Positions 6,089-29,454 of a DNA stretch of 32,000 nt are shown here, in pieces; position 1 is the stretch's first letter; every line of letters begins with the position of its first letter. A program made the translations under genes and the position numbers. Source of the stretch: Methanopyrus kandleri AV19 (GTDB lineage Archaea > JAADCQ01 > Methanopyri > Methanopyrales > Methanopyraceae); contig NC_003551.1 in NCBI RefSeq assembly GCF_000007185.1, positions 150,001-182,000 on the forward strand, given 5' to 3'. Under the pieces are notes generated by a model that saw only the letters and a list, made by a program, of their open reading frames with translations, searched no databases and was not told the DNA's origin.

Positions 6089-8347
6089 TTGCCGCGCGAG
6101 AAGTGTCCTAAATGTGACGGGAAGGGGAAGATCCCAGTCGGAGAGACCGAATGTCCCAGATGCGGTGGTACCGGGTTCGTGGGCGACGTGGACATCAGCG
6201 AGCACTTCAAAGGAGCGGCTCAGCACGCCGTCGAAGGGTACGATCTCGCCAGCTCACGTGACGTCCCCTGTCCGAAGTGTCAGGGTAAAGGTGTGATAAC
6301 GGTCTACGAGGAATGCGACAGGTGCGGTGGTACCGGTTACATCGTGAAGTGTCGGGAGTGCGGGAAGGAACTGGATCCAGACGTTGAAGAGGACCTATGC
6401 GAGGAGTGCCGGAAGAAGATCAAACAGATTCGCAAGGAAAAGCTGCCAAAGGTGAAGGTCCTCTCGCCGGCGTGCGGGTACGAGGACGTCGAAGAGGGCG
6501 AGCTGTACAAGGGCAAGGTTAGCCGTGTCGAGAAGTACGGAGTTTTCATCGAATTAAACGACAGAACCCTCGGTCTGCTACACCGTCGCGATATGGGCGA
6601 CAAGGAGCCTCAGGACTTCTCGATCGGTGACGAGGTGGTGGTGAAGGTCACGGACGTGCGACCGGAGGACGGCGAGATCGACTTCACGATCGAAGGTATC
6701 GACCCACGGCCCGATCGATACCGCGAGGAGGTCGTGGAGAAGGAGCTGAAGCGCGTACTCGTACACGACATCGACGAATCGAAGATCGGCGAGACCGTCC
6801 TGATTAAAGGTAAGATCATCCACGTCCAGCAGACACCCGGACCGACCGTATTCACGCTACGAGACGAGAGCGGTAGCATCTGGATGGCAGCCTTCGAGGG
6901 GCCGGGGATCAGGGCCTATCCGGACATCGAGGCGGGTGATTACGTCCGGGTGATCGGCGAGGTCACCACGCACGACGGCCAGCTCCAGGTCGAGATCCTC
7001 GACATGGAGAAGCTCGTGGGGACGGAGAAAGTCGAGATCAAACGAGCCATCGACGAGGCGCTCGACCGGGAAGCCGAGCCGCCCGAGGATCTAAAACCCA
7101 TGGTAGACAGCGAGATCATCGAGCGTCTGTGGCCGCGGATGCGCGAGGTGGCGAAGGAGATCAAGCGGGCCGTACTCGAAGGTCGGCCCGTCCTGATCCG
7201 GCACCACGCGGACGCCGACGGTATCTCGGGCGGAGTAGCGCTGGAGGAGGCGATACTCCCGATCTTGAGGGAGAACAACCCGGACCCGGAGGCAGAGTAC
7301 CACTTCTACAAGCGGTTCCCGAACAAGGCGCCGATATACACCCTCGAGGACGCCTCACGGGACCTGAACCACGCCCTAGAGGACGTCCACAGGTACGGCC
7401 ATCAGGTACCACTCCTGGTACTCTTGGACATCGGGTGTACCGAGGAGGACGTACCCGCCATCGAGGAAATGAAGGCCTACGGCGTCGACGTCCTGGTCAT
7501 CGACCACCACTATCCGGGCGAAGCCGTGGGAGAGAACCCGGAGGACGGACTGAAGGAGTTCCCGATCGACGAACACGTGAAGGTACACGTGAACCCCTAC
7601 GCGGCGGGTGGCGACGGCAAGAACATCCCCGCAGGTGTCCTGGCCGTAGAGATCGCCCGACTCATCAACCCGGAGGTGGAGGACAGGATTAAGCACCTCC
7701 CGGCGGTCGCGTGTCTGGGGGACCACGCCGAGTCTCCCGAGGCGGAGCAGTACCTCGAGATCGCCGAGGAGGCCGGTTTCGACAGGAAGTGGCTGAGGAA
7801 GATCGCGGACAGCGTCGACTTCCAGGCGTTCCAGCTGCGTCACACTCCGGGGAGGCACCTGATGAACGACGTTCTCGGCACTACAGGGGACGAACACCGA
7901 CACCGACGGCTGGTAGAGAACCTCTACAAGCAGCATAAGATCGCCTGCGAGCGGCAGCTGGAAGCCGCGCTGAAGGGAGTCAAGGAGTACGAGACGGACG
8001 GTGTGAAGGTGGTCACCTTAGACGTGGAGAAGCACGCCCGCAAGTTCGAGTACCCCGGCCCGGGCAAGACGTGCGGGCTCGTCCACGACCTGAAGGTCGA
8101 GGAAGAAGGCGACGATGCAAAGGTAGTGACCATCGCGTACGGACCGGACTTCGCGGTGATCAGGGCCACGGAGAACCTGGGGATAAACCTCAACGATATC
8201 GTATCGGAACTGGAGGAAGAGATGCCAGAGGCCGCGGTGGAGGGTGGAGGTCACGAGACCGCCGGCTCGATATCGTTCGTGGAGGCACATCGGAACAAGG
8301 TCCTCAAGGCGCTGGTCGAGAAGATCCTGAGGGACGCCACCTCTTAA
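6089..8347 (+). CDS. Archaea-specific RecJ-like DHH phosphoesterase/nuclease with N-terminal DnaJ-type zinc finger, S1 and OB domains
   Basis: Four CxxCxGxG repeats (CPKCDGKG, CPRCGGTG, CPKCQGKG, CDRCGGTG). S1-like KGKVSRVEKYGVFIEL and an OB fold. DHH motifs RHHADADGISG and VIDHHYP, plus DHHA1 GGGHETAGS. Confidence 0.8.
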   Translation: MPREKCPKCDGKGKIPVGETECPRCGGTGFVGDVDISEHFKGAAQHAVEGYDLASSRDVPCPKCQGKGVITVYEECDRCGGTGYIVKCRECGKELDPDVEEDLCEECRKKIKQIRKEKLPKVKVLSPACGYEDVEEGELYKGKVSRVEKYGVFIELNDRTLGLLHRRDMGDKEPQDFSIGDEVVVKVTDVRPEDGEIDFTIEGIDPRPDRYREEVVEKELKRVLVHDIDESKIGETVLIKGKIIHVQQTPGPTVFTLRDESGSIWMAAFEGPGIRAYPDIEAGDYVRVIGEVTTHDGQLQVEILDMEKLVGTEKVEIKRAIDEALDREAEPPEDLKPMVDSEIIERLWPRMREVAKEIKRAVLEGRPVLIRHHADADGISGGVALEEAILPILRENNPDPEAEYHFYKRFPNKAPIYTLEDASRDLNHALEDVHRYGHQVPLLVLLDIGCTEEDVPAIEEMKAYGVDVLVIDHHYPGEAVGENPEDGLKEFPIDEHVKVHVNPYAAGGDGKNIPAGVLAVEIARLINPEVEDRIKHLPAVACLGDHAESPEAEQYLEIAEEAGFDRKWLRKIADSVDFQAFQLRHTPGRHLMNDVLGTTGDEHRHRRLVENLYKQHKIACERQLEAALKGVKEYETDGVKVVTLDVEKHARKFEYPGPGKTCGLVHDLKVEEEGDDAKVVTIAYGPDFAVIRATENLGINLNDIVSELEEEMPEAAVEGGGHETAGSISFVEAHRNKVLKALVEKILRDATS

Positions 8348-8832
8348 CCTACACGCACGCATTTCACGATAAGCCGCTCGCGCGCCGTGGAAAGAGGCGT
8401 GCAAGTGACCAACCACAGCTCGTCCTTATTCGACGCATCCGGGTCGATGACGTAATCCGGAGATACTACCACTTTATCGTACACCACGTACACGTACTTG
8501 GACCCGAACCAGTACACTATGACCTTATCACCGCGCTTTAACTCGTCGAGGTGTAGGAAGGGAGATCCGAAAAGAGTACGATGTCCGTAGAACACCGTGA
8601 TTCCCTTTTTACCAGGCGGAGGCGTCATGATCTCGTAATACACACCGTAGTCCGGCGAGGTGGTGTTGATCCGCTCGCGGAGACCTAACTTCGGGATGAC
8701 CAACTCGCAGTCGGGTATCGATACGGATTCATGGTACATGAAGTAAGCGACTTCCTTGGCCGCGAGATACCCCAAGTACGTCGTGGATGGAGCGAGCAGG
8801 AGAATTCCCGGAATCAGGTACCGTAACCTCAC
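8344..8832 (-). CDS. Sortase-family transpeptidase homologue (N-terminal membrane anchor)
   Basis: 162 aa. TM segment LIPGILLLAPSTTYLGYLAA. LVIPKLGL; catalytic-His context VFYGHRTLFGSPFLHLDELKRGDKV; catalytic-Cys context LWLVTCTP; downstream Arg (RERLIV). The order and spacing match the sortase H-C-R triad. Confidence 0.75.
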   Translation of the reverse strand: MRLRYLIPGILLLAPSTTYLGYLAAKEVAYFMYHESVSIPDCELVIPKLGLRERINTTSPDYGVYYEIMTPPPGKKGITVFYGHRTLFGSPFLHLDELKRGDKVIVYWFGSKYVYVVYDKVVVSPDYVIDPDASNKDELWLVTCTPLSTARERLIVKCVRVG

Positions 8833-9701
8833 TTGCTGAGACCCCTGTAGACTAGGTAGAGCCCGACCACGGCCGCCAGCACCACCGCCGCGATCAGGAA
8901 CAGGGACTCACCCGCTTTGTATTGACCCGCCGTGACGGCGCCCCCCGCACCAGCGCCTCCGGCGCCACCGACGCCCGCTCCACCCGCCGCACCGCCGGCG
9001 CCTCCACCTTCAGCTCCAGCCCCCGGGCCGCCGGCTCCTCTACTGTACTCCATGACGTACCTGATTTCGGGGAACGGACCGTACGGTCTGCCGTCGATGG
9101 TTACTCTACCGTCCTTAACACCGATTTTCCAGACCGGGACGTTATCGTTCACCCTCGCGGGCTTCGGGTCGGCATCGACCAGTCTACCGTCCGCTAGAAC
9201 GACCACCCCGCTGAGCTCCGTTTCCGGGGCACTGTTGACGTTTGCCTTTAACTCCATAGAGACCGAGATCCGCTCGTAGGAGCACTCGCTCATGTTGAAC
9301 GGCCAGCCGGCGTTCACCATCAGTGGGAAACCTTCCTCCAGGGAGACGTTACTCGCCACGATCTTGGCGTACGCCCTTGATCCAGAGATCTTGACGTCTT
9401 CGACCTTGGCACCCGAGATACCGATGTCCGACTCCCTAGGTTTTTGAGCACCCTTACCCGTGGCCTGCACCTCGATGACAAGTTTGGAGATAGTCACCGG
9501 GGGTTTTTTACCCTGACCGGTGGGCTCGGTGGGCTGTCCCACGGGCGCACCGGGGGACTGACCGGTTTGAGCTATGGTGATGGAGCCTACCAATGCGGAG
9601 TAAGCCACGCACATTCCCAGCATAACCAGTATAGTCGATTTTAAGGACAGTTTCAACAGGGTTTTCCCCCGCAGTGCGTCTACGTCTCCGGCAGTATCCA
9701 A
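8829..9701 (-). CDS. Secreted/envelope protein with Gly/Ala-rich linker and a C-terminal tripartite sorting-type signal
   Basis: N-terminal signal-like KLSLKSTILVMLGMCVAYSALVGSITIAQ (alternative TTG start 9656). The C-terminus is (GA-rich)...AVTAGQYKAGES, then the hydrophobic stretch LFLIAAVVLAAVVGLYLVY, then the basic tail RGLSK. It overlaps the sortase start by 4 nt. Confidence 0.6.
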   Translation of the reverse strand: MDTAGDVDALRGKTLLKLSLKSTILVMLGMCVAYSALVGSITIAQTGQSPGAPVGQPTEPTGQGKKPPVTISKLVIEVQATGKGAQKPRESDIGISGAKVEDVKISGSRAYAKIVASNVSLEEGFPLMVNAGWPFNMSECSYERISVSMELKANVNSAPETELSGVVVLADGRLVDADPKPARVNDNVPVWKIGVKDGRVTIDGRPYGPFPEIRYVMEYSRGAGGPGAGAEGGGAGGAAGGAGVGGAGGAGAGGAVTAGQYKAGESLFLIAAVVLAAVVGLYLVYRGLSK

Positions 9702-10819
9702 ATTCCTCCTTTGACACTCGATGCTATTAACACCTTAGGTTGAACCGCGTCTTTCGGTATTTCAACGATTACTAGTAAGTTCTCCCAGCTCCGGATACCT
9801 TCCCTAGCCTCAATGCTCATTAACTGACGAATGAAGCCGCCTCCCCGGCGTGCCCTTTCTACGGCCATCGCTTTCACCAGATCGCGGAGATCTACGAGCG
9901 CCACCGGCGACAGGTGAGGTGACGTGACTCTGGTGTTCAGGCCCGGGTAATTTTTAAGCGTATACGTGACACCCGTCCCGCCTCCGACGGCGTACGATCT
10001 CCCGGTTACGAGGCCTGCCGGGAATACCACCTTCCTTAGGGCCAAATCCGAGCTACCTGTACGGTACATGGTCTCCAACGCAGATGCTGATACTAGGTCA
10101 ATTTTGAAGTTATCTGGTAACCCGCCTTTAATCAGCATAATATATCGAACTATAGCCCCGCTTATTTGGTTGGGGCCCTTATATGCTTCCTTATTTTTAA
10201 CTTTAGCAATTTTCTTAAGAGCCCAGTTCGTAATCGATAGTGTCACCCTATCCCCGACTTTTATAGGACCCGTCTTATTCGGATCTGCCCAAATTGCTAT
10301 CAGTACTGTTTCAGGGCGCTTCACTTGAACTTTCATCAGTTCGTCAACACCCATCATCCTTATCTTGTTCAATGCGTCTCTGACAGTAAGCAACTGTGGT
10401 CCCTCAGGCGTAACTAATTCTACCCTCCCTTTCTTCTGATTCATTTTGATTTGCTTCGCCAGATACCTCCTCCACTCTACCGTTGCAGCGCCCACTACAT
10501 CAATTGCTTGTAACTGTTCTGGAGTCTCTGCTGAGAGTATTTGCTGCTGCAATTTAGTCCGCGTTGGTGAAGCTGCGAGCGGTCCTGTGAAATATGTGTT
10601 TAGCTCTTTCAACTTTTGAGCACGAAGTTTTTCCAACTGCTCTACATACGGTTTGTATACGAAAAAGTAGTACGCCCCACCGCCGGCGGCCAAGAAAATC
10701 AATCCTATGACGATCGCTCCGATCACGGCGTGGCGTCTCTCTTCCGGAATCTCAACGAAGTTCGTCGGTCTCACCGGCGGCCGCGGAAGCACCCTCTCAC
10801 CCCCCTCACCATGTACCAC
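9680..10819 (-). CDS. N-terminally anchored membrane protein, uncharacterised (AT-rich gene)
   Basis: 379-aa ORF with a single TM (AVIGAIVIGLIFLAAGGGAYYFFVY) followed by a coiled region. The C-terminal LLVIVEIPKDAVQPKVLIASSVKGGIWIL faintly recalls CpaB/SAF-type pilus-assembly proteins (weak). It overlaps both neighbours. Confidence 0.55.
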   Translation of the reverse strand: MVHGEGGERVLPRPPVRPTNFVEIPEERRHAVIGAIVIGLIFLAAGGGAYYFFVYKPYVEQLEKLRAQKLKELNTYFTGPLAASPTRTKLQQQILSAETPEQLQAIDVVGAATVEWRRYLAKQIKMNQKKGRVELVTPEGPQLLTVRDALNKIRMMGVDELMKVQVKRPETVLIAIWADPNKTGPIKVGDRVTLSITNWALKKIAKVKNKEAYKGPNQISGAIVRYIMLIKGGLPDNFKIDLVSASALETMYRTGSSDLALRKVVFPAGLVTGRSYAVGGGTGVTYTLKNYPGLNTRVTSPHLSPVALVDLRDLVKAMAVERARRGGGFIRQLMSIEAREGIRSWENLLVIVEIPKDAVQPKVLIASSVKGGIWILPET

Positions 10820-11502
10820 GAAAGTAGCGCCGTTATCGTGACCGAGGCGACAACTTCCAGCCCCCGTTTTATCTCATCCGGGGGGATCAGGAACGAGAAC
10901 AGGAGCACGAGGGATGAGAGACCTCCCGCGGCCAGGATCGCCGGATGGGGACGCTTGAGGCTCGGGAACTTGATCGAGGAGATCATCAGTAAGGCCGAGG
11001 TACCCAGTATCACGGTATTGAGGACATACCACAGGTATGACGGACCCAAATCGACTGTTAGGAAATAGAGACTGCTGGCTATCGTTCCGACCCACGGAAC
11101 TGGGAGGCCGAGGTAGTACTCACCCGGGTCGTACCCGTCGACACACATCGCGTTGAACCGGGCGAGTCGGAGGGCACCGCAGCAAACCATCAGGACGGCG
11201 AGAAGGTAACACATCGGAGCCGGCACGAGACCGGCGGTGACTACTAGCACGGCCGGTGCTACCGCGAACGAGACCAAGTCAGCCAGTGAGTCCAGGTTCA
11301 TCCCGAACTCGGACTCCTTTCCCGTCCTCCTGGCCACGAACCCGTCCAATGAGTCCGCGATGAAGGAGAGTATGATGAACCTGGCGGCCGCACCCGGAAA
11401 CCCTGCGATCGACGCTAGAAGTGAAAACGCTCCGAAGACCACGTTGGTCAGCGATACCACGCACGCGGGTGTGATCAGCTCCGAGATCTTCCAACGCTCC
11501 AC
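10771..11502 (-). CDS. pssA: CDP-alcohol phosphatidyltransferase, archaetidylserine synthase-like
   Basis: Signature D-G-x2-A-R-x8-G-x3-D-x3-D is present (ADSLDGFVARRTGKESEFGMNLDSLADLV). Multi-TM protein. A PSD homologue lies immediately upstream. Confidence 0.85.
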   Translation of the reverse strand: MERWKISELITPACVVSLTNVVFGAFSLLASIAGFPGAAARFIILSFIADSLDGFVARRTGKESEFGMNLDSLADLVSFAVAPAVLVVTAGLVPAPMCYLLAVLMVCCGALRLARFNAMCVDGYDPGEYYLGLPVPWVGTIASSLYFLTVDLGPSYLWYVLNTVILGTSALLMISSIKFPSLKRPHPAILAAGGLSSLVLLFSFLIPPDEIKRGLEVVASVTITALLSWYMVRGVRGCFRGRR

Positions 11503-11508
11503 GTTACC

Positions 11509-12162
11509 TCACCTCTTCACCCTAATCACGGGAGTCTCGCCGGCCTTTACACTGTCCCCTTTACGTACGAGTAGCTCCTCCACGCTACTTCGGGGGACAG
11601 CCAGGTCGACCCTTGACCCGAATCGGATCATGCCGATCGGTTCCCCCTTGTTCACCTCGTCTCCCTCCTGTACGTACAGGTCGATCCTGCGCGCGACCGC
11701 TCCCGATACTAAACGGACGACGAACGGGGGGTCGCCGTCGAACAGCAACACCGCCCGGTTGTTCTCGGTGGCCGAATCTTTCCGGAAAGCCGGACGGAAC
11801 CGTCCTTTTAAAATCTCGGCCTCCACGACCCGCCCGTCCAGCGGGGCGCGGTTCACGTGCACGTCGAGCGGCGACATGAACACGGACACCGTTATCGGGT
11901 CGTCTAGGTACGAGCTCAACTCGTCGTCGGATGCCTCCCCGGCTTCCATCACGTAACCCAGCAGTCTACCGTCCGCGGGTGATACCGCGAGGGAAGGGTC
12001 CGAAGGAGGTTCACGCGGAGGGTTACGGAAGAAGAACGCCAGGAACGCCGCGGTTCCGAGGCAGAGGAAGGATAAGGGGCGAGACCATGGGAACAGTGCT
12101 GCGCCGAGGGCCGCCGGTGGTGTTACGAACTTCCACCATCCAGGCGCCATCAAATCGCTCAC
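11509..12162 (-). CDS. psd: Archaetidyl/phosphatidylserine decarboxylase-related proenzyme
   Basis: Short PSD family: SVFMSPLDVHVNRAPLDG, RLVSGAVARRI, and a self-cleavage type FGSRVDL motif. Confidence 0.85.
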   Translation of the reverse strand: MSDLMAPGWWKFVTPPAALGAALFPWSRPLSFLCLGTAAFLAFFFRNPPREPPSDPSLAVSPADGRLLGYVMEAGEASDDELSSYLDDPITVSVFMSPLDVHVNRAPLDGRVVEAEILKGRFRPAFRKDSATENNRAVLLFDGDPPFVVRLVSGAVARRIDLYVQEGDEVNKGEPIGMIRFGSRVDLAVPRSSVEELLVRKGDSVKAGETPVIRVKR

Positions 12163-12707
12163 ACCCGCTCACAGACGAACACGAACCCGGGGACGATGTG
12201 TACCCACTTCAGGTACTTTTCCAGCACGCGGAGTGGAACCTCGTGATGGAGTAATTTAGTGAAGTATCCGGGCCAGTGCGTCAGCTGCACGAACCTGCCT
12301 GAAGTCTTAAGAACTGTCGCGCAGGATCGGAGGAACTCGAGGGGCTCGGGCACGGTTTTGACGGGGACCGTCGACAGTACGGCGTCGACGTTATCCACGA
12401 GCTCCGGTAGCTCGCGTGCGTCCGCGACCACGAACTCGATGGAGTCTTCCACCCCGTACTCCTCCGCGTTCCTCCGGGCCATGTCGATCATCTCGGGATC
12501 GACGTCGACGGCCAGCACTTCACACCCCATCTCCGCCGCCGCAATGGCGACGACTCCGTTCCCGGTACCCGCGTCCACCACGAAATCTCCTTCCTCCACC
12601 CCGGCCGCCCGAACCATGAACTCGGCGGTTTCCCTGCGGGTAGGGGCCGGCGCGCCCACTCGGAGCGGTTCGCGGAGTGCCTTTCTGACGAACGCCCATA
12701 CGCTCAT
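12159..12707 (-). CDS. Class I SAM-dependent methyltransferase, phospholipid N-methyltransferase-like
   Basis: From ATG 12707: MSVWAFVRKALREPLRVGAPAPTRRETAEFM (family-typical N-terminus), SAM motif VVDAGTGNGVVAIA, and C-terminal VPGFVFVCER. The Pro-rich extension to 12953 in the ORF track overlaps the GTPase gene and is rejected. There is a 4-nt overlap with the psd start. Confidence 0.7.
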   Translation of the reverse strand: MSVWAFVRKALREPLRVGAPAPTRRETAEFMVRAAGVEEGDFVVDAGTGNGVVAIAAAEMGCEVLAVDVDPEMIDMARRNAEEYGVEDSIEFVVADARELPELVDNVDAVLSTVPVKTVPEPLEFLRSCATVLKTSGRFVQLTHWPGYFTKLLHHEVPLRVLEKYLKWVHIVPGFVFVCERV

Positions 12708-12730
12708 GGTATCCCCCCAGGGGTGGTGGT

Positions 12731-13357
12731 GTGGGAGTTCGCGAAGTCTTAAGACGCTTGGCGGCCGCTCTGAGGTCCGGACCCGAGGAGCTGGACATCG
12801 GAATATACGGGGCTCCCAACGTGGGCAAAACGACGCTGGCGAATCGCATCGCCCAGGATTGGGAGGCGGAGGAGTTCGGTCAAGTGTCGGAGGTCCCTCA
12901 CGAGACTCGGGAATCGGTGCGTCGAGAGGTAGCGATAGAGGTGGGATCAACAACGGTTAAATTCAACATCGTGGACACACCCGGCATCGCCACGAAGGTA
13001 GACTACCGTAAGTTCTTGGAGTACGGGCTTGACGTGCAAGAGGCGAAACAGAGGGCCAAAGAGGCTACTCGAGGGGTGGTGGAAGCGATCAAGCTCCTAA
13101 AGGACATCGACGGGGCGCTGGTCGTCATCGACTCCACCAAGGATCCCCTGAGTCAAGTCAACGTAACCCTGATAGGCAACCTGGAGGCCAACGACGTCCC
13201 GTTCTTGGTCGTTGCGAACAAAATAGACTTGGAGGAAGCCGACCCTGAAGCTGTCCGGAAAGCGTTCTCGGAATACCCCGTAGTCGCCGTCTCCGCGAAG
13301 ACCGGGGAGAACATGGCTAAGCTGTACGAAGCCATGGTTAGGGAGTTTACGAGTTGA
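12731..13357 (+). CDS. Small P-loop GTPase (Era/Ras-like, archaeal type)
   Basis: G1 GAPNVGKTT, G3 DTPG, G4 NKID, G5 SAK. Confidence 0.85.
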   Translation: MGVREVLRRLAAALRSGPEELDIGIYGAPNVGKTTLANRIAQDWEAEEFGQVSEVPHETRESVRREVAIEVGSTTVKFNIVDTPGIATKVDYRKFLEYGLDVQEAKQRAKEATRGVVEAIKLLKDIDGALVVIDSTKDPLSQVNVTLIGNLEANDVPFLVVANKIDLEEADPEAVRKAFSEYPVVAVSAKTGENMAKLYEAMVREFTS

Positions 13358-13716
13358 CGGACGGCGAGGTTAAAGTGGAGGTGCTAGCTAAATCGGCTTT
13401 AGAGAGGATGTCGACGGAGGAGGTCGTGGAGTACGTCATCGAAAAAACTAGGGGCGGGTCCGTGATCGTACTTGAGGGACAGTTAGACCCGGAGACGCTA
13501 ACACAGATCATCCGTGAGACTATGGAAAATGTGGATCTGGAAGAGTTCACAGGTGTGGACATCTACGTGGTACCACCGAAGGCGAAGACGGATAAAGGAC
13601 TTTTCGACAGACTGCTGGGACGCCAGTCCGAGGAGGGTATGACCGTGATCTCACCCGCGGACGTTCTGAAGGATATGAAAAAGGGGAAGGATTTCATCAC
13701 GCTAAAACTCGGATGA
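13354..13716 (+). CDS. DUF2073-like conserved archaeal protein
   Basis: VIVLEGQLDPETLTQIIRETMENVDLEEFTGVDI matches my memory of the LE.GL.PEEE..LIE.TM..ID...F.GIE signature of the archaeal family that follows this GTPase. 4-nt overlap with the GTPase gene. Confidence 0.6.
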   Translation: MTDGEVKVEVLAKSALERMSTEEVVEYVIEKTRGGSVIVLEGQLDPETLTQIIRETMENVDLEEFTGVDIYVVPPKAKTDKGLFDRLLGRQSEEGMTVISPADVLKDMKKGKDFITLKLG

Positions 13717-13729
13717 CGGGAGATCTGCT

Positions 13730-13984
13730 ATGCCTCATATATGTATAAGATGCGGCGAAGTGTACGACAAGGTTACAAAAGAACTCATACGTCGGGGTTG
13801 CTTAAAATGTGGGTGTAGACTGTTTAAGCGGGTATCTGAGGATGACGGAGATAACCCAGCAACGATCGTTGTCGAACGTGATGGCGTTTACACAATTAAC
13901 ATTGAAAACATTGACGATGTTGTAACTGTATATAAATCAGGTAGATTCTTCATAGTGCTTCCGGAGCAAAAGTACGGGGATTAG
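13730..13984 (+). CDS. Zn-ribbon protein (DUF2072-like)
   Basis: MPHICIRCGEVYDKVTKELIRRGCLKCGCRLF: a CxxC...CxxC ribbon with the family-typical MPH.C..CG N-terminus. Confidence 0.6.
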   Translation: MPHICIRCGEVYDKVTKELIRRGCLKCGCRLFKRVSEDDGDNPATIVVERDGVYTINIENIDDVVTVYKSGRFFIVLPEQKYGD

Positions 13985-13988
13985 GCAA

Positions 13989-14609
13989 TTGAAGACCACA
14001 GAAAGACCTGAACTGAGAGTTAAAATACTTAGAGCAGCTGCAGTATCTCACGAAGACATCAGTAAGGAAATGGATTCATACTGTGCAATACTAGGGGATC
14101 CAGAAAGCATTGATGATATCGTATATGAAGTGATGCGTCTATCTAATTTTGAAATTATCGACAACAGTATAGTGAAAACTAGACACGGAATAGTAGTTTG
14201 GAGGTACGGAGTTGTACTAATAAAATCGACGCCTGAGATTACTTCATTAATAAAGCGAATAGTGAGTGATACGAACCTCATGTCTGTAGTATTTAAGGCC
14301 AAGGACGGGAACTTTCTGATAGCAGGACCGGACATTGTCTTGAAAAAAATTTTGAGTAGTGCTAGAGTTAAAATGAAGGTTAAAGTGACCAAGCGTACCA
14401 GAGGTATAGCTTTCGTTGAAACTTCCACCGTGGTATTCGATGCGATGCCTGGATTCTTAAAAGACATAATTAACACGCTTCTCGGCATAGAAGAGGAAGT
14501 ATTCAGTATTTTGGTCCTAGACGTTGAAGATCCTGAAAAGTTTAAGAAGATCATCGATAAAGGACCGAATGTATATTGGAGGAGAATTGAAGAAGATAAA
14601 GAGACGTAG
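13989..14609 (+). CDS. Hypothetical protein, AT-rich gene (possibly two Roadblock/LC7-like halves; speculative)
   Basis: 206-aa ORF with a TTG start, packed tightly between the Zn-ribbon gene and mreB. No motif recognised with confidence. Confidence 0.5.
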   Translation: MKTTERPELRVKILRAAAVSHEDISKEMDSYCAILGDPESIDDIVYEVMRLSNFEIIDNSIVKTRHGIVVWRYGVVLIKSTPEITSLIKRIVSDTNLMSVVFKAKDGNFLIAGPDIVLKKILSSARVKMKVKVTKRTRGIAFVETSTVVFDAMPGFLKDIINTLLGIEEEVFSILVLDVEDPEKFKKIIDKGPNVYWRRIEEDKET

Positions 14610-14624
14610 AGGGGTTGTAAGCGC

Positions 14625-15806
14625 TTGCCATTGTGGAAGAGAAAGAAAAAAGAGGAGACAAAGCAAGAGAAAAAGATTGAAGAAGAGAAGAAGGAGAATA
14701 ATGAAAAGAAAGCTTCTAAACTACCAACATCTATTCAAGAGGCACTTAGTGAAGAGCCCGAAATAGAGATAGATGAAGGGCTCGAAGCACTTGGTATAGA
14801 TTTAGGCACCATGAACACAGTGGTTGCGAGGCCGGCCGAGGAGGAGTTTTTGGTGAAGCAATTTCCGTCTGTAGTAGCCGTGAAGAAGGGTACGAATCGA
14901 GTTTTGGCTATAGGTGAAGAAGCCCGCCGAATGCTCGGACGGACTCCCGAGGACATCGTGGCCGTGCGTCCAATGCGTCACGGTGTGATCGAGTCCTTAG
15001 AGTACGCCAAGTTCATAGTTCAGTACGCGATCGAGCTCGGATCGGACAACAGTCCCGAAGAAATCGAACGCGTCGCCGTAGGAGTGCCGGGTGATGCATC
15101 CGAGGTGGAGAGAGAAGCCATCGAAGAGGCGACCTCGGACGTCGGAATGGATAAGGACAACGTGATCGTGATCAACGAAGCCCTAGCGGCCGCCATCGGA
15201 GCCGGACTGCCGATCGCGGAGCCGGACGGTACTATGGTGATCGACATCGGAGCGGGTTCCACCGATATCGCCGTTATATCGTTGGGTGGAATCACCGACC
15301 AGGAGACCATGAGGGTCGGTGGGGACAACATCGACCAGAACATCGTCGATCTCGTGGAGGAGGAGTTCGGGGTGCGGATCGGCATCCACGAAGCCGAGCG
15401 GGCGAAAGTGGAGGTAGGTAAAGTCTTCACTGAGACCGAGGACATCGAGGACAAGGAGATCGAAGTGGTAGGCAAGGACATCGAAACGAACAAGCCCAAG
15501 GAGATCACTATCGACTCCGAGCTGGTGGCTAAAGCCGCGGAGCCCGTCGTCCAAGAGATCATCAGGGCCATCGAGAGTATCCTCGACAGGTTGCCGCCGG
15601 AGTTGGTCCCGGGCGTGTACGAGAACACCGTGCTCGTCGGAGGTACCTCACTAATGCGAGGCCTCCGAGCTAGGATCGAAGAGGAAACCGACGTACCGGC
15701 CGAGCTCGTAGACGATCCCCTGACGGTAGTAGCGAAGGGTGCCGCGATCGTAGCCGCGGAGCCGAAGACCTTGGAGCCCGAGATAAGACTCAAGGCTCTG
15801 AAGTGA
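14625..15806 (+). CDS. mreB: Actin-like rod-shape protein MreB with ~54-aa K/E-rich N-terminal extension
   Basis: GIDLGTMNTVV (phosphate 1), VAVGVPG, INEALAAAIGAG, MVIDIGAGSTDIAVISLGG (phosphate 2), GGDNIDQ, VLVGGTSLMRGL. The only in-frame starts upstream of the core are TTG 14625 and 14631. Confidence 0.9.
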   Translation: MPLWKRKKKEETKQEKKIEEEKKENNEKKASKLPTSIQEALSEEPEIEIDEGLEALGIDLGTMNTVVARPAEEEFLVKQFPSVVAVKKGTNRVLAIGEEARRMLGRTPEDIVAVRPMRHGVIESLEYAKFIVQYAIELGSDNSPEEIERVAVGVPGDASEVEREAIEEATSDVGMDKDNVIVINEALAAAIGAGLPIAEPDGTMVIDIGAGSTDIAVISLGGITDQETMRVGGDNIDQNIVDLVEEEFGVRIGIHEAERAKVEVGKVFTETEDIEDKEIEVVGKDIETNKPKEITIDSELVAKAAEPVVQEIIRAIESILDRLPPELVPGVYENTVLVGGTSLMRGLRARIEEETDVPAELVDDPLTVVAKGAAIVAAEPKTLEPEIRLKALK

Positions 15807-15842: not shown

Positions 15843-16553
15843 TTGCGCCTTCGGGCAGACCTGCATACCCACACGGTATACTCAGACGGCCACGGGACCC
15901 CGCTGGAGAACGTATTAGCGGCGGAAGAGCGGGGACTCGAGACGGTCGCATTAACCGATCACGGTCCCGCATCACCCGACGGTCTCACGGATCGGTCCTT
16001 CAGACGTCTCGTGGCGGAAGCCAGGGAGGCGGAGAAACTCTGCTCGGTTCGGGTGTATGTTGGTGTGGAAGCGAACATCGTGTCAATCTCGGGAGAGATA
16101 GACGCAACACCGGCGATGCTCAGCGAGTCCGACATCGTGCTGGCCGCCATCCACAACCCTCGTCTGATACTGGCGAACCCGGGAAGTGCGGAAGAACTAC
16201 GACGCGCGATCGTACACGCGACGATCAGGTGCATAGAGAGTGGAGAGGTACACATAATCGCGCACCCGGTGTGGATCCTGGAGCAGCTCCGATGTTACAT
16301 AACCGCACAGGAGGCGGAAGAAATCGCCCGGGTGGCCGCCGATCACAACGTCGGGCTGGAGCTTAACGCGCGGCATCTCCCCAGGGACTTCACCTTATAC
16401 CAAGTCGCGATTCGGGTAGGGGCACCGATCACGTTCGGTAGCGACGCCCACGCACCTGAGGAAGTGGGGCGGTTCAAGCCGCTCCAGAAGCTAGCCCGAA
16501 GGCTCGGTATCGAACCGCAGGATGTACACCCGGAGGAGCTGGGGATCGTCTGA
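15843..16553 (+). CDS. PHP-domain metal-dependent phosphoesterase
   Basis: RADLHTHTVYSDGHGT and ALTDHGP, with later His/Asp motifs (AIHNP, IIAHP, GSDAH). TTG start. Confidence 0.8.
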   Translation: MRLRADLHTHTVYSDGHGTPLENVLAAEERGLETVALTDHGPASPDGLTDRSFRRLVAEAREAEKLCSVRVYVGVEANIVSISGEIDATPAMLSESDIVLAAIHNPRLILANPGSAEELRRAIVHATIRCIESGEVHIIAHPVWILEQLRCYITAQEAEEIARVAADHNVGLELNARHLPRDFTLYQVAIRVGAPITFGSDAHAPEEVGRFKPLQKLARRLGIEPQDVHPEELGIV

Positions 16554-22301: not shown

Positions 22302-22377
22302 AGGGCCGTGGGGTAGCGGTCTATCCTGCGGGGCTTTGGACCCCGCGACCCCGGTTCAAATCCGGGCGGCCCTACCA
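22302..22377 (+). tRNA. tRNA-Gln (anticodon UUG), CCA encoded
   Basis: Manual fold. Acceptor AGGGCCG/CGGCCCU (A1-U72, as in archaeal tRNA-Gln). Anticodon stem CGGGG/CCCCG with loop CUUUGGA. T arm CCCGG-UUCAAAU-CCGGG. Discriminator A plus CCA. Confidence 0.85.
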
Positions 22378-22420: not shown

Positions 22421-22690
22421 TTGGACGCGCTGCTGAAGATCTGCATACTGAATGCGCTGGCGGTGGTAGCTTTCGCCGTACTCGTCTGGGCGGCTTTTAG
22501 GTACGCACTTCCCTCCTGGTTCATCCTGGCGATTATCGTCCCAGGGGTTCTCGGGTCAGCGTGCGTTGACTACGTCATGATCAGCGTCGGTGTGTACGAT
22601 GGCCCGTGGGAAACGGCATTCGCGAGCGTTGTGTACGCGGTGGCATGGTGGACAGGAAGACCCGGACCGTCCGGCCCGGGGTCCCGTTAG
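22421..22690 (+). CDS. Small hydrophobic protein (about 3 TM), hypothetical
   Basis: 89 aa. TTG start with AAGGGGA 6 nt upstream and GC-rich third positions. The last ~6 codons are complementary to the vhuU SECIS hairpin. Confidence 0.45.
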   Translation: MDALLKICILNALAVVAFAVLVWAAFRYALPSWFILAIIVPGVLGSACVDYVMISVGVYDGPWETAFASVVYAVAWWTGRPGPSGPGSR

Positions 22691-22704
22691 GGTTCCCCCG
22701 GGCC
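22673..22704 (-). promoter_or_regulatory. Archaeal-type SECIS element in the vhuU 3' UTR
   Basis: The minus-strand RNA is GGCCCGGGG-GAA-CCC-UAAC-GGG-A-CCCCGGGCC. This gives a 9-bp GC lower helix, a GAA/A asymmetric internal loop, a 3-bp upper helix and a 4-nt apical loop. It starts 19 nt after the vhuU stop. Confidence 0.8.
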
Positions 22705-22722
22705 ATCATCCGGCCGGGGCGT

Positions 22723-22864: not shown

Positions 22865-24169
22865 CTAAGCTAGTTCCACGATTTCGTCCTCTAACTTTTT
22901 CGCGGTCTCCTTCAGGGCGAGCTCGATCGCGGGGACGTTGTGAGTGGTAGCGACTATCAGGTTGGCCTCCTTCACGCGACCCTCGTCGTCGGTCACGTAG
23001 TGGTGGATGAGCGTACCACGCGGCGCCTCGACGATGCCGACTCCTTCGCCCGCCTTGGGCTCGTAGTCCTCCTTGCACTCGTCCTCCTCGGTGATCACAT
23101 CGTCCTCGAGCAGCATCTTGGCCTCCTCACACGCGGCCACGAGTTCCACGAGCCGGGCCCAGTTGATGGTGAGCGAGTAGTTCACGCACTCCCCGAACTC
23201 GTCGACGTACTCCTCGTAGAGCTCCTGGGCGCGCTCGGTCTTCATCTCCGAGCAGACGTTGAGCCGTGCACCCGGTCCTACCCTGTAGATACCGTCCGGG
23301 TACCCGACGTCCTTCAGGTACGGGTGTTTGACGTAGGAGTACTCTATGGTGCGCTCCGCGATCACGTCCTGGTATTCCTGCGGCTCGAAGCGCGTGACCT
23401 CCTCCCCGTTCGGATCCACTACCTTCACCTCGCCGTCGTAGAACTCGTGCTTGTCACCGTCTGAGACGAGACCCATGTGGTAAGTCTCGATGTTCCCTAG
23501 AGTCTCGAGCAGATCGATGTCGTGCTTCTCCCGGTACTCCTCCAGCGTCTCTTTGATCGCCTCGATGCCGACCTTGGCACCCTCGTACGCCATCTCGATC
23601 ATCTCTTCGGCGCGGTTGAGCAGGTCATCGCGTGACTCCGGGTCGACCGGGGAGGAGACGCCGCCCGGGATCCCCGTCACGGGGTGTATGGCCTTACCTC
23701 CGGTAGCCTCTACGATGTCCTGACCGTAGCGACGCAGTTCGATCGCGATCTTTCCGACTTCCGGGTCGTCCTTGACTATCTTCACCACGTTACGCTGGAG
23801 CGGGTCCGCATCCGGTCCAACCACGTAGTCGGGCGCCGCCAGGAAGTAGAAGTGAAGCGCGTGGCTGTGGATCATGTTCCCGATGTGCATCAGCCACCGG
23901 ATCTTGTGCCCGCCTTCGGGCGGCTCGGCGTCGAAGCACGCGTCCACGGCCTTGCAGGCCGCTAAATGGTGGGCAGTCTGGCAGATACCGCAGATCCTGG
24001 ATACGATGTAGGGAACGTCCTCCGCGGGGCGGCCTTGGACGAACTTTTCGAACCCTCGGACTGCGAGGACTGCGAACTTGACGTCGGTCACCTCACCGTC
24101 CTCGACCTCGATGATGACTTCACCGTGTCCCTCTACCCTGGTCAGGGGGTGAATCTTGATCTCGGCCAC
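22865..24169 (-). CDS. vhuA: F420-non-reducing (Mvh/Vhu-type) [NiFe] hydrogenase large subunit, C-terminally truncated form
   Basis: LTRVEGHG and RICGICQTAHHLAA (N-terminal Ni ligands). It ends at ...ATTHNVPAIELALKE..., before the DPCxxCxxH motif. Confidence 0.9.
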   Translation of the reverse strand: MAEIKIHPLTRVEGHGEVIIEVEDGEVTDVKFAVLAVRGFEKFVQGRPAEDVPYIVSRICGICQTAHHLAACKAVDACFDAEPPEGGHKIRWLMHIGNMIHSHALHFYFLAAPDYVVGPDADPLQRNVVKIVKDDPEVGKIAIELRRYGQDIVEATGGKAIHPVTGIPGGVSSPVDPESRDDLLNRAEEMIEMAYEGAKVGIEAIKETLEEYREKHDIDLLETLGNIETYHMGLVSDGDKHEFYDGEVKVVDPNGEEVTRFEPQEYQDVIAERTIEYSYVKHPYLKDVGYPDGIYRVGPGARLNVCSEMKTERAQELYEEYVDEFGECVNYSLTINWARLVELVAACEEAKMLLEDDVITEEDECKEDYEPKAGEGVGIVEAPRGTLIHHYVTDDEGRVKEANLIVATTHNVPAIELALKETAKKLEDEIVELA

Positions 24170-24172
24170 CCG

Positions 24173-25090
24173 TTACTCCCCCTTCGAGCCGAAGATCACG
24201 TCACGATGACCCTTCAGTAGAGACGCGGCCATGGAGAACATGTAGAGCTTCCCAGGTAGGTCGACGAGTCCCTCCAGGATCTCCTCGACGTCGACGTCGG
24301 TCTCGAAGGACACCGAGGCGATCGCATCGAGGAACGCCGCACCCTGATCCAGTGCCTGCTTCGTCGGTCCGTTACACCCACGGCACGATAGTCCTCGGGA
24401 CGGACAGGCCGCTCCACATCCGGCGACCGTGGCCGGTCCCATGCACGGGTAGCCCTGTTCGAGCAGGCACTTGTCCGGGTCGGGTCGGCCCTGACCGGTG
24501 CGGAACTTGATCTCCTCGATCGGGATGTCCTCCTTCTCGCGGGGACATTCCTCGCACAGGTTCGTCGTCGGGAGTTCGGGCTCCCGGTCCTCGAGGATGG
24601 CGGTGATGACCTCAGCGATGCTCTCCGGCTTGGGAGGGCAGCCCGGCAGCATGTAGTCGACGTCGATTACCTCGGGCAGCGGCCGCACGTAGCCGAAGAG
24701 CTCCGGAACGACCTCTTCCGGAGTCTCGCCTTCGTCGTCGGTGGTCGGGGTCTCCTTGAAGACCCACTCGAGGATGTCGTCCAGTTGGTACAGGTTGGCC
24801 AGCCCGTGGACTCCACCGTAGCAGGCGCATGTCCCCACGGCGACGACGATGTCGGCGGCCTCACGGAGTTCTTCCGCGACCTCGAGATCCTCCTCGTTTC
24901 GGATGCTTCCCTCGATCACCGCTACGTTCACGTGCTCTGGGATCTCCTTCTGGTCGACTAGTACGTAGCAGTACTCGATCTCGATGGCGTCCTCCAGGAG
25001 ATCGAGTAACTTCTCGTGGAGATCGAGCAGTGACACGTGACACCCGACACAGGAGGACAGTTGAGCCGTCGCAATCGTCGCCTTACCCAT
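24173..25090 (-). CDS. vhuG: F420-non-reducing [NiFe] hydrogenase small subunit
   Basis: SSCVGCHVSLLD, GTCACYGG, LPGCPP, and a distal Cys cluster CEECP...CMGPATVAGCGAACPSRGLSCRGC. Confidence 0.9.
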   Translation of the reverse strand: MGKATIATAQLSSCVGCHVSLLDLHEKLLDLLEDAIEIEYCYVLVDQKEIPEHVNVAVIEGSIRNEEDLEVAEELREAADIVVAVGTCACYGGVHGLANLYQLDDILEWVFKETPTTDDEGETPEEVVPELFGYVRPLPEVIDVDYMLPGCPPKPESIAEVITAILEDREPELPTTNLCEECPREKEDIPIEEIKFRTGQGRPDPDKCLLEQGYPCMGPATVAGCGAACPSRGLSCRGCNGPTKQALDQGAAFLDAIASVSFETDVDVEEILEGLVDLPGKLYMFSMAASLLKGHRDVIFGSKGE

Positions 25091-28460: not shown

Positions 28461-28778
28461 CTAAGCGAGCCGCTGGGATACCCGCTCGTAGAGTTCTTGG
28501 ACGCGTTCCTGAGCCTCCTCGTCTAGCTTCAACTCCGCGAGTTTTTTCGTCCGTTCCCACCCGGGGTACTTCGACGTGCCGAGCCTGCGAGACCTTCGGA
28601 GGGTGTACACCACGACCTCCACCGTACCGTCCTCGCCCTCCTCGGTGACGACCTCGTACCGACCTCCGGTGTGCACGATCCCTTGCATCTGCTTGATAAC
28701 GGCCGCCACGTCGTCCGGTAGCTCCTCCAGTTCCTCCTTCCGGGCGTACTTAGCGAGCACGTCGAACGCTTCCTCCAA
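28461..28778 (-). CDS. Hypothetical small acidic protein (105 aa)
   Basis: ATG-initiated ORF with host-like composition, divergent from rnhB. No motif recognised. Confidence 0.5.
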   Translation of the reverse strand: MEEAFDVLAKYARKEELEELPDDVAAVIKQMQGIVHTGGRYEVVTEEGEDGTVEVVVYTLRRSRRLGTSKYPGWERTKKLAELKLDEEAQERVQELYERVSQRLA

Positions 28779-28821
28779 CCCTCTTCCACCCCCGCTGGAG
28801 CGAAGCTTAGGGGTTCAAAAG

Positions 28822-29454
28822 ATGAGCGGTGTAATGGGTATCGATGAAGCCGGACGTGGACCCGTGTTCGGCCCTATGGTCGTGGCCGGTGTACTGGCTC
28901 CGAAGCGGGAGCTCGGCCTAGGCGCGAGAGATTCGAAGGAACTCACACGGAGTGCGCGTCGTAGACTGATCCGCGCGTTGATGTCGGACGAGCGATTAAG
29001 GGTGGACCTGAGGATAGTGTGGCCGTGGGAGATAGACGAAGAGGGCGTGGCGAAGGCGGAGTTCGAAGCTATCAGGGAGCTAGTACGCCGTGCTATGCCC
29101 GACGAGGTAATCCTGGACAAACCGGGAAACTACTCACCCGAGCGACTGCGAAGGGAGCTCGACTTGCCCGAAGGAATCAACCTAATCGCTGAAGAGAGGG
29201 CGGACGCGAAGTACGAAGTAGTTTCAGCGGCCTCGATCGTAGCCAAGACGTACCGTGACTGGATAGTAAGGCTCCTGGAGCTGGAATACGGAGAGGTCGG
29301 GTCGGGGTACCCTTCGGACCCCCGTACCGTAGATCGCCTTCGTCGGGAACTACGTCGGGGTGGTGAGTTGCTGAAGTACTTCAGACGGTCGTGGGAGACG
29401 TACAAGCGCGTTGAGAGTGAAGTGAAGCAGCGAAAGCTCGAGGACTTCTTCTGA
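28822..29454 (+). CDS. rnhB: Ribonuclease HII
   Basis: MSGVMGIDEAGRGPVFGPMVVAGV, DSKELT, AASIVAKTYRD, GSGYPSDP. The ORF-track N-terminal extension (from 28576) overlaps the opposite-strand gene and is rejected. Confidence 0.9.
   Translation: MSGVMGIDEAGRGPVFGPMVVAGVLAPKRELGLGARDSKELTRSARRRLIRALMSDERLRVDLRIVWPWEIDEEGVAKAEFEAIRELVRRAMPDEVILDKPGNYSPERLRRELDLPEGINLIAEERADAKYEVVSAASIVAKTYRDWIVRLLELEYGEVGSGYPSDPRTVDRLRRELRRGGELLKYFRRSWETYKRVESEVKQRKLEDFF

Follow-up and report, generated by a model that had tools for sequence, protein, structure and literature searches.

In the window analysed here, a stretch of 32,000 nucleotides from the chromosome of Methanopyrus kandleri AV19 (NC_003551.1, whose positions equal the window coordinate plus 150000), five genes on the + strand at 12731-15806 follow each other without appreciable gaps. 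We consider it rather probable that they are two independent conserved modules, dipABC for placement of the division site and ORF206-mreB for rod shape, which are joined only in the class Methanopyri and there form a single operon. The cluster opens with dipA (also named oapA or arvA), encoding a small GTPase of 208 residues (12731-13357, GTG start), followed by dipB (oapB, arvB), a DUF2073 protein of 120 residues (13354-13716) with a TTG start and a 4-nt overlap with the end of dipA, and dipC (oapC, arvC), a zinc-ribbon protein of 84 residues (13730-13984, ATG start). Next come ORF206, an open reading frame (ORF) for a 206-residue protein (13989-14609, TTG start; WP_011018539.1, AAM01384.1, Q8TYX4), and mreB, encoding an actin-like rod-shape protein of 393 residues (14625-15806, TTG start). 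An earlier note, made from the letters of this DNA, had described a tight co-directional cluster, and the ORF list returns its coordinates and all four junctions, -4, +13, +4 and +15 nt, exactly. The arrangement is common to Methanopyri, being found in four Methanopyrus strains and in a metagenome-assembled genome (MAG) of a second genus.

Judged by its families, the triad at the front of the cluster is the known Dip division-site system, and the M. kandleri genes already stand in a published supplementary table. DipA matches MMR_HSR1 in Pfam (2.4e-17, 63.5 bits) and small_GTP in NCBIfam (5.7e-21, 75 bits), and carries the motifs G1 (GAPNVGKT at 27), G3 (DTPG at 82), G4 (NKID at 163) and G5 (SAK at 188). 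Residues 2-15 (GVREVLRRLAAALR) form an N-terminal amphipathic helix in a sequence-level test, with a hydrophobic moment of 0.76, and DipA is accordingly predicted to be a membrane-binding small GTPase. DipB matches OapB (PF09846) at 8.2e-35, scoring 119.4 bits (cutoff 27) over profile positions 1-100 of 104; its gene has the lowest ratio of nonsynonymous to synonymous substitution (dN/dS) in the cluster, 0.01-0.03 among the Methanopyrus strains. DipC matches OapC (PF09845) at 1.1e-7, scoring 32.6 bits (cutoff 23), and covers only profile positions 1-61 of 133. Its CxxC pairs lie at residues 5 and 24, and its C-terminal 22 residues occur in a later block of the DipC alignment of He et al. (bioRxiv 10.64898/2026.05.19.726155), as read from text obtained by optical character recognition. 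At 84 residues the protein is short, compared with 131 +/- 20 in non-halophiles and about 276 in haloarchaea, and essentially no linker separates the zinc ribbon from the C-terminal block. The spacing of the three genes (-4 and +13 nt) is operon-like.

The M. kandleri genes are found in the material of He et al. under their own coordinates: dipA as the homologue of HVO_3014 (WP_011018536.1, NC_003551.1 162731..163357), dipB at 163354..163716, and DipC as WP_011018538.1 (84 residues) in both alignment and table, while the MacSyFinder match 'GCF_000007185.1_dips_1' comprises genes 168-170. The names OapB and OapC, from 'origin-associated proteins', are the current Pfam names of DUF2073 and the zinc-ribbon family. 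Mills et al. (PNAS 2024, PMC10927574) renamed OapABC as ArvABC, found extracellular-vesicle yield to be affected in Haloferax, and placed ArvB immediately downstream of ArvA in 93% of 1,666 genomes. The string 'Methanopyr' does not occur in their supplementary file 11, which gives archaeal genomes with taxonomy and of which the stored copy is possibly incomplete; M. kandleri is part of the survey of He et al., and the score-ratio method of Mills et al. may have missed the lineage. The triad had been taken in the earlier note for a conserved archaeal module of unknown function; the conservation is borne out, and the function had already been described, under the names OapABC, ArvABC and DipABC.

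What the system does is known from Haloferax. According to the preprint of He et al., deletion of any of the three dip genes there gives minicells and mislocalised FtsZ, and the Dip proteins oscillate from pole to pole in H. volcanii. Membrane binding of DipA depends on GTP, and DipB both frees DipA from the membrane and stimulates its GTP hydrolysis; the authors propose a Min-like model in which DipC is the cargo of the oscillator and inhibits FtsZ1. In their survey the distribution of Dip tracks FtsZ1, and Dip is widespread in archaea without MreB. The M. kandleri triad has the same three families, order and operon-like spacing as in Haloferax (He et al. 2026; Mills et al. 2024; Wolters et al. 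2019), but its DipC is minimal, the cluster is not beside orc1 or an origin, and ORF206-mreB directly follows. Oscillation and FtsZ1 positioning are known from H. volcanii only.

The second module is a pair. ORF206 is a real gene, as seen from a 621-nt ORF in DNA of 38% GC, dN/dS values of 0.04-0.10 among the Methanopyrus strains and hundreds of homologues, and it is under strong purifying selection. It has no match in Pfam or NCBIfam, and a word-indexed search returned Methanopyrus proteins only. Searching 1.8 billion representatives with phmmer gave three matches, including proteins of 46% and 26% identity. The former comes from a Methanopyri MAG in which the order arvABC-ORF-mreB-PHP recurs, and the latter is 51% identical to a 210-residue ORF of Methanothermobacter wolfeii that lies 1 nt upstream of mreB. 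A profile of the family then recovered 688 proteins of about 210 residues, members from Methanothermobacter, Methanobacterium and Methanobrevibacter at E values of 1e-57 to 1e-77. The best 120 of the 688 are almost all 208-220 residues long (four have 225-268) and without a Pfam domain; those named to genus among these 120 belong to Methanopyrus, Methanothermobacter, Methanobacterium and Methanobrevibacter, all members of Methanopyrales or Methanobacteriales, and one MAG is labelled 'Euryarchaeota archaeon' only. Thus ORF206, previously put down as lineage-specific, belongs to a family that accompanies mreB in all pseudomurein methanogens examined.

This pairing has been described before. ORF206 is 90% identical to WP_088335262.1 of Methanopyrus sp. 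KOL6, a member of OG0001176, and we therefore equate the ORF206 family with that orthologous group. Lupo et al. (mSystems 2025, PMC11915815) place OG0001176 in their 'cluster C' as exclusive to pseudomurein-containing archaea and free of transmembrane segments, with the MreB gene (OG0000094) always downstream of it and the pair divergent from a DUF515/RcpC-like gene and sortase E. They label the group 'coiled coil' and consider it possible that it acts in shape or in regulation; InterProScan Coils is found in one of five members and nothing in the other four. In our loci, too, a gene of the family is directly upstream of mreB in every case, at 15 nt in the window, and we regard the protein as cytoplasmic and soluble.

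To what extent the two modules belong together was assessed from gene neighbourhoods, recovered by tblastn with the window proteins from M. wolfeii and 14 species-representative Methanobacteriales loci, covering as much as 10 kb to either side of each locus, contig ends permitting. MreB stands beside an ORF206-family gene in all 15 loci, and the same order is seen in the annotations of M. formicicum and M. marburgensis. DipA, DipB and DipC, in turn, were found in none of the 15 within 10 kb of mreB. Methanobacteria do carry dip genes (He et al.): in M. marburgensis (1,634,695 bp) dipA lies at 451,667 and dipB at 452,298, about 844 kb from ORF210-mreB at approximately 1,296,300-1,298,000, and in M. 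filiformis dipAB, dipC and the ORF206-family-mreB pair are on three different contigs. Within Methanopyri, the order of a divergent methyltransferase gene followed by dipA-dipB-dipC-ORF206-mreB-PHP is identical in the window, three further Methanopyrus strains (L026-L028) and the second-genus MAG (L007), with a dipC-ORF206 gap of 4 nt in all five genomes. Two Methanopyri MAG contigs were all that came from scanning metagenomes with a DipB alignment of two sequences. The earlier note had named, as grounds for refutation, a triad and mreB never adjacent in other genomes; the adjacency is kept across Methanopyri, and outside this class, at 0 of 15 Methanobacteriales loci, that ground for refutation applies.

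The predicted structure of ORF206 gives some indication of what kind of protein accompanies MreB. An AlphaFold2 model built with 46 family members reached a predicted local distance difference test (pLDDT) score of 79.5 and a predicted template modelling (pTM) score of 0.75; a model from Methanopyrus sequences alone was unusable (pLDDT 42.6). The family-based model has an N-terminal helix at residues 7-20, of low confidence, which bears the most conserved motif of the family (E8, L14, R15, A17, A18 and S20), and two ferredoxin-like beta-alpha-beta-beta-alpha-beta domains at approximately residues 30-103 and 109-199. To our reading this predicted two-domain fold is new for the family. Foldseek against the PDB places tandem ACT-type proteins first (GcvR-like 1u8s and 2nyi, and the N-terminal ACT pair of SerB, 3p96), which likewise consist of two consecutive beta-alpha-beta-beta-alpha-beta units, with BMC-T and other ferredoxin-like folds after them. 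The ACT matches have E values of about 1e-4 and probabilities of 0.97-1.0, but superpose poorly, with TM-scores of 0.26-0.30, a root-mean-square deviation of about 10 A and about 10% identity; such low scores would reflect likeness of the individual domains and not of their arrangement, and ORF206 differs also in its extra conserved N-terminal helix. A profile of the family gave no match among PDB sequences at E <= 10, and no ligand-binding motif was identified in ORF206. Neither do the two domains resemble each other detectably when aligned with hhalign (E 0.12, no internal repeat), and the idea that ORF206 is a duplicated SepF/DipB-like protein was rejected, as hhalign of the family against DipB shows no relation.

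MreB itself gives full-length matches, with 336 bits to Pfam PF06723 (MreB_Mbl, cutoff 27; 1.8e-100) and 298.8 bits to NCBIfam PRK13927/NF010539 (cutoff 293), while TIGR00904 reaches 280 bits and remains below its cutoff of 365. The closest relatives are those of Methanopyri at 83-96% identity and of Methanobacteriales at about 60-64%. Residues 1-55 (14625-14790) are an N-terminal extension, made up of a hydrophobic and polybasic head (MPLWKRKKK) and a spacer rich in K and E. A short hydrophobic and basic head opens all archaeal MreBs examined (MFSFGKKEKK or MFGFGKKN in Methanobacteriales), whereas the spacer of about 35 residues occurs in Methanopyri only and its sequence is little conserved. 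The extension may target MreB to the membrane, much as the amphipathic helix at the N-terminus does in Gram-negative MreB. In the bacterial Rod system mreC and mreD lie beside mreB; the absence of both, as remarked in the earlier note, holds for the window, where no gene matches either family in a search limited to these 32 kb.

Strict pairing with mreB, together with a soluble two-domain protein and a conserved N-terminal helix, makes ORF206 the likely leading candidate for an archaeal MreB partner on grounds of synteny, and since no MreC or MreD is found next to mreB in these organisms it is also the obvious one. Taken with what is known from Haloferax, the cluster would work as follows. By analogy with the homologues, DipA-GTP would bind the membrane through its N-terminal amphipathic helix and recruit the zinc-ribbon protein DipC, which would block assembly of the FtsZ ring; DipB would stimulate GTP hydrolysis and release DipA, and the resulting pole-to-pole oscillation would keep midcell free for division in a Min-like manner. 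MreB, with its hydrophobic and basic head, presumably guides growth of the rod side wall, with ORF206 as a dedicated partner that could modulate assembly or serve as adaptor. In Methanopyri joint transcription of the two modules, perhaps extending to the PHP gene, is most likely, and genes for the division site and for elongation would in this manner be co-expressed. Direct signalling from the GTPase to MreB would not be needed for such an arrangement.

Signals around the junctions are consistent with joint expression. A Shine-Dalgarno-like GGGG precedes each start of the cluster's genes, the TTG starts of ORF206 and mreB are kept in all Methanopyrus strains, and a pattern scan found no run of five T in any junction, including those after dipC and between mreB and PHP. 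From these features we regard co-transcription of dipABC and ORF206-mreB as likely. A sigma-70 promoter and terminator scan gave counts at shuffle expectation and is not informative for an archaeon.

The strongest competitor to a joint operon is that the adjacency has no regulatory meaning, ORF206-mreB being expressed from a promoter of its own, TATATAAA, in the 3' end of dipC, with dipABC and the methyltransferase gene simply inserted there or lost in the sister class. The pattern scan indeed detected a TATA-box-like element, TATATAAAT, at 13929-13937 on the + strand, inside dipC and 52-60 nt upstream of the ORF206 start, which may be an internal promoter. No second element of this kind occurs on the + strand from 12.5 to 17 kb, an AT-rich trough is centred on the one detected, and in Methanobacteriales the pair is a free-standing bicistron preceded by an intergenic region of 270 to 500 nt. 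On the other hand, the motif is constrained by coding, as it also specifies V-Y-K; other genomes read TGTATAAA, TGTATAAG or TTTACAAA at this position, and strain L027 and MAG L007 have a degraded form of it. The constant 4-nt gap between dipC and ORF206 and the lack of a terminator-like T run after dipC likewise speak against separate transcription, and we judge this explanation unlikely, though it deserves to be kept in mind.

The trough itself is a property of the lineage. Over 13730-14800 the GC content drops from about 61% to 36-42%, and GC at third codon positions (GC3) is 0.40 in dipC and 0.38 in ORF206, compared with 0.65-0.78 in neighbouring genes, such that the trough covers dipC, ORF206 and the first approximately 150 nt of mreB. 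It is present in five of five Methanopyri genomes although synonymous sites are near saturation (dS 0.8-2.1 between strains), and is therefore maintained and not a trace of recent transfer. That the low GC stems from a recent horizontal transfer of ORF206 was rejected on the same ground, the trough being shared with the second genus, and further since the closest homologues outside Methanopyri are only about 22% identical, while ORF206 is about 45-46% identical between the two Methanopyri genera. A replication origin in the AT-rich zone, an idea prompted by the same genes being 'origin-associated' in haloarchaea, was also discarded: no repeated elements like origin recognition boxes are present, the zone is entirely coding, and sign changes of the GC skew merely follow the gene strand.

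The genes that flank the cluster extend the comparison with Methanobacteriales. Downstream, a PHP-family phosphoesterase of 236 residues (15843-16553, +; Pfam PHP 2.3e-12) begins 37 nt after mreB. It stands directly 3' of mreB in all Methanopyri loci, its start overlapping the mreB stop in MAG L007, and in this class may be transcribed with the cluster as a sixth gene; the tight co-directional run described in the earlier note probably extends to it. Upstream and divergent, at 23 nt from dipA, lies a S-adenosylmethionine-dependent methyltransferase gene (12159-12707, -; 182 residues from an ATG at 12707; Pfam Methyltransf_25/11 at about 3e-18), found by tblastn in Methanopyri loci only among those of the two groups. 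The mechanically called ORF for it, 12159-12953 on the - strand, has 264 residues, a TTG start and an overlap with the first 223 nt of dipA; gene calls on related contigs begin at the ATG at 12707. With 23 nt between the divergent start codons, both promoters would have to lie inside coding sequence, or the transcripts be nearly leaderless.

Beyond the methyltransferase gene follows a block on the - strand (8344-12162) that comprises a sortase (8344-8832), a 290-residue ORF without a Pfam family (8829-9701), a DUF515/RcpC-like gene (9680-10819), a CDP-alcohol phosphatidyltransferase (10771-11502) and phosphatidylserine decarboxylase (PSD; 11509-12162). The synteny of this block, from sortase to PSD, with ORF206-mreB holds for Methanopyri as well as for Methanobacteriales, and the block represents the second arm of cluster C. 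Most of the 15 Methanobacteriales loci contain PSD, the CDP-alcohol transferase and DUF515; the order there is PSD on the opposite strand, an intergenic gap of 190 to 500 nt, ORF208-212, mreB and RNase HII. The space between PSD and ORF206 thus holds the methyltransferase gene and dipABC in Methanopyri and no genes in Methanobacteriales. Genes for lipid head-group synthesis and surface proteins thereby adjoin the shape genes. RNase HII, immediately 3' of mreB in Methanobacteriales, is at 28576-29454 in the window, 12.8 kb downstream of mreB, which suggests a rearranged or inserted mreB-RNase HII interval in one lineage. Elsewhere in the window an Rfam flpD RNA motif (22667-22713, -; 55.8 bits, gathering score 40) adjoins NiFe-hydrogenase genes on the same strand, for the large (22865-24169) and small (24173-25090) subunits, and a tRNA-Gln(TTG) lies at 22302-22377 (+).

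Several observations weigh against the view of two independent modules merely sharing an operon in Methanopyri. The adjacency survives deep divergence within the class, with ORF206 at about 45% identity, which argues that linkage is selectively maintained there. In addition, Haloferax oapA and dip mutants change cell shape (Mills et al.; He et al.), which points to a degree of cross-talk of Dip with shape determination in one archaeon at least. The Dip mechanism comes from one haloarchaeal preprint, and a vesicle role is published for the same genes; binding of ORF206 to MreB is a postulate; the likeness of the ORF206 fold to tandem ACT-type domains is weak; and the TATA-like element inside dipC could give ORF206-mreB a promoter of its own.

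The earlier note went further and envisaged a GTPase-regulated MreB cytoskeleton, which nothing in our data indicates. In its direct form, the GTPase would control MreB with ORF206 as GTPase-activating protein, guanine nucleotide exchange factor or adaptor, similar to MglA/MglB and MreB in Myxococcus xanthus, where a small GTPase and MreB likewise occur in one organism and a GTPase-actin link is proposed. The tight linkage kept across Methanopyri would fit, as would the fewer rod-shaped cells after oapA deletion in Haloferax and the elongated cells upon DipA overexpression, and He et al. see in Dip a possible integrator of division, shape and motility. Both modules are however present and yet unlinked in Methanobacteriales, as far as 844 kb apart in M. 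marburgensis, and Dip is widespread in archaea that lack MreB, following FtsZ1 instead. DipA moreover already has its own established partner and regulator in DipB, to which ORF206 has no profile similarity, and the Roadblock, LC7 or longin fold that was to be looked for in ORF206 is not among its top 50 PDB matches (by Foldseek, as one method). We hence hold direct control of MreB by the GTPase to be quite improbable. Similarly doubtful, and given as little chance by us, is a milder form in which the Dip oscillator in Methanopyri also patterns or gates MreB assembly via ORF206, coordinating the cytoskeletons of division and elongation; if true, the long-kept gene linkage would be the trace of a Dip-MreB coupling in a pseudomurein-walled rod.

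Least credible of all is that the triad is here the vesiculation machinery Arv, in which an Arf-like GTPase buds extracellular vesicles, and not a division-site oscillator, with MreB and ORF206 linked to it via envelope remodelling, and we know of no vesicle release through a pseudomurein sacculus. Knockout or overexpression of ArvA does alter vesicle yield in Haloferax, with contributions of arvB and arvC (PMC10927574), but later work finds abundant minicells and mislocalised FtsZ in all three mutants as well as oscillating proteins, and Methanopyrus is missing from the genome-taxonomy file mentioned above, with the same reservation as to its completeness.

We thus return to dipABC and ORF206-mreB as separate modules, joined in Methanopyri. 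Both parts are already known, the triad as Oap/Arv/Dip and the OG0001176-MreB pairing from Lupo et al., whose cluster C has the same pair and the same divergent sortase/DUF515 block as Methanopyrus. New is the contiguity of dip and ORF206-mreB: He et al. do not mention it ('MreB' has 0 occurrences), and neither do Lupo et al., who make no mention of dip genes and methyltransferase between the cluster C arms in Methanopyrus. A comparable layout exists in Bacillus subtilis, where an operon, maf-radC-mreBCD-minCD, likewise unites MreB and Min-type placement genes of a walled rod in one unit. The components differ, with the GTPase DipA in place of the non-homologous ATPase MinD and the soluble ORF206 in place of the non-homologous membrane proteins MreC and MreD; the order is reversed in Methanopyri, with the placement genes first, and the arrangement is that of one archaeal class.

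Aggregated, the data reveal no new GTPase-MreB system, rather they sharpen two questions, on the role of ORF206 and on cross-talk between division and elongation. No gene other than that of the ORF206 family accompanies mreB in every archaeon with a murein-like wall examined here. Methanothermobacter is now genetically tractable, and a role of the family as MreB partner is therefore testable. The cluster of Min-like and MreB genes in Methanopyri, built in Bacillus from non-homologous parts, would represent a convergent operon architecture, and Methanopyri would be an obvious lineage in which to seek cross-talk of division placement with elongation in archaea.

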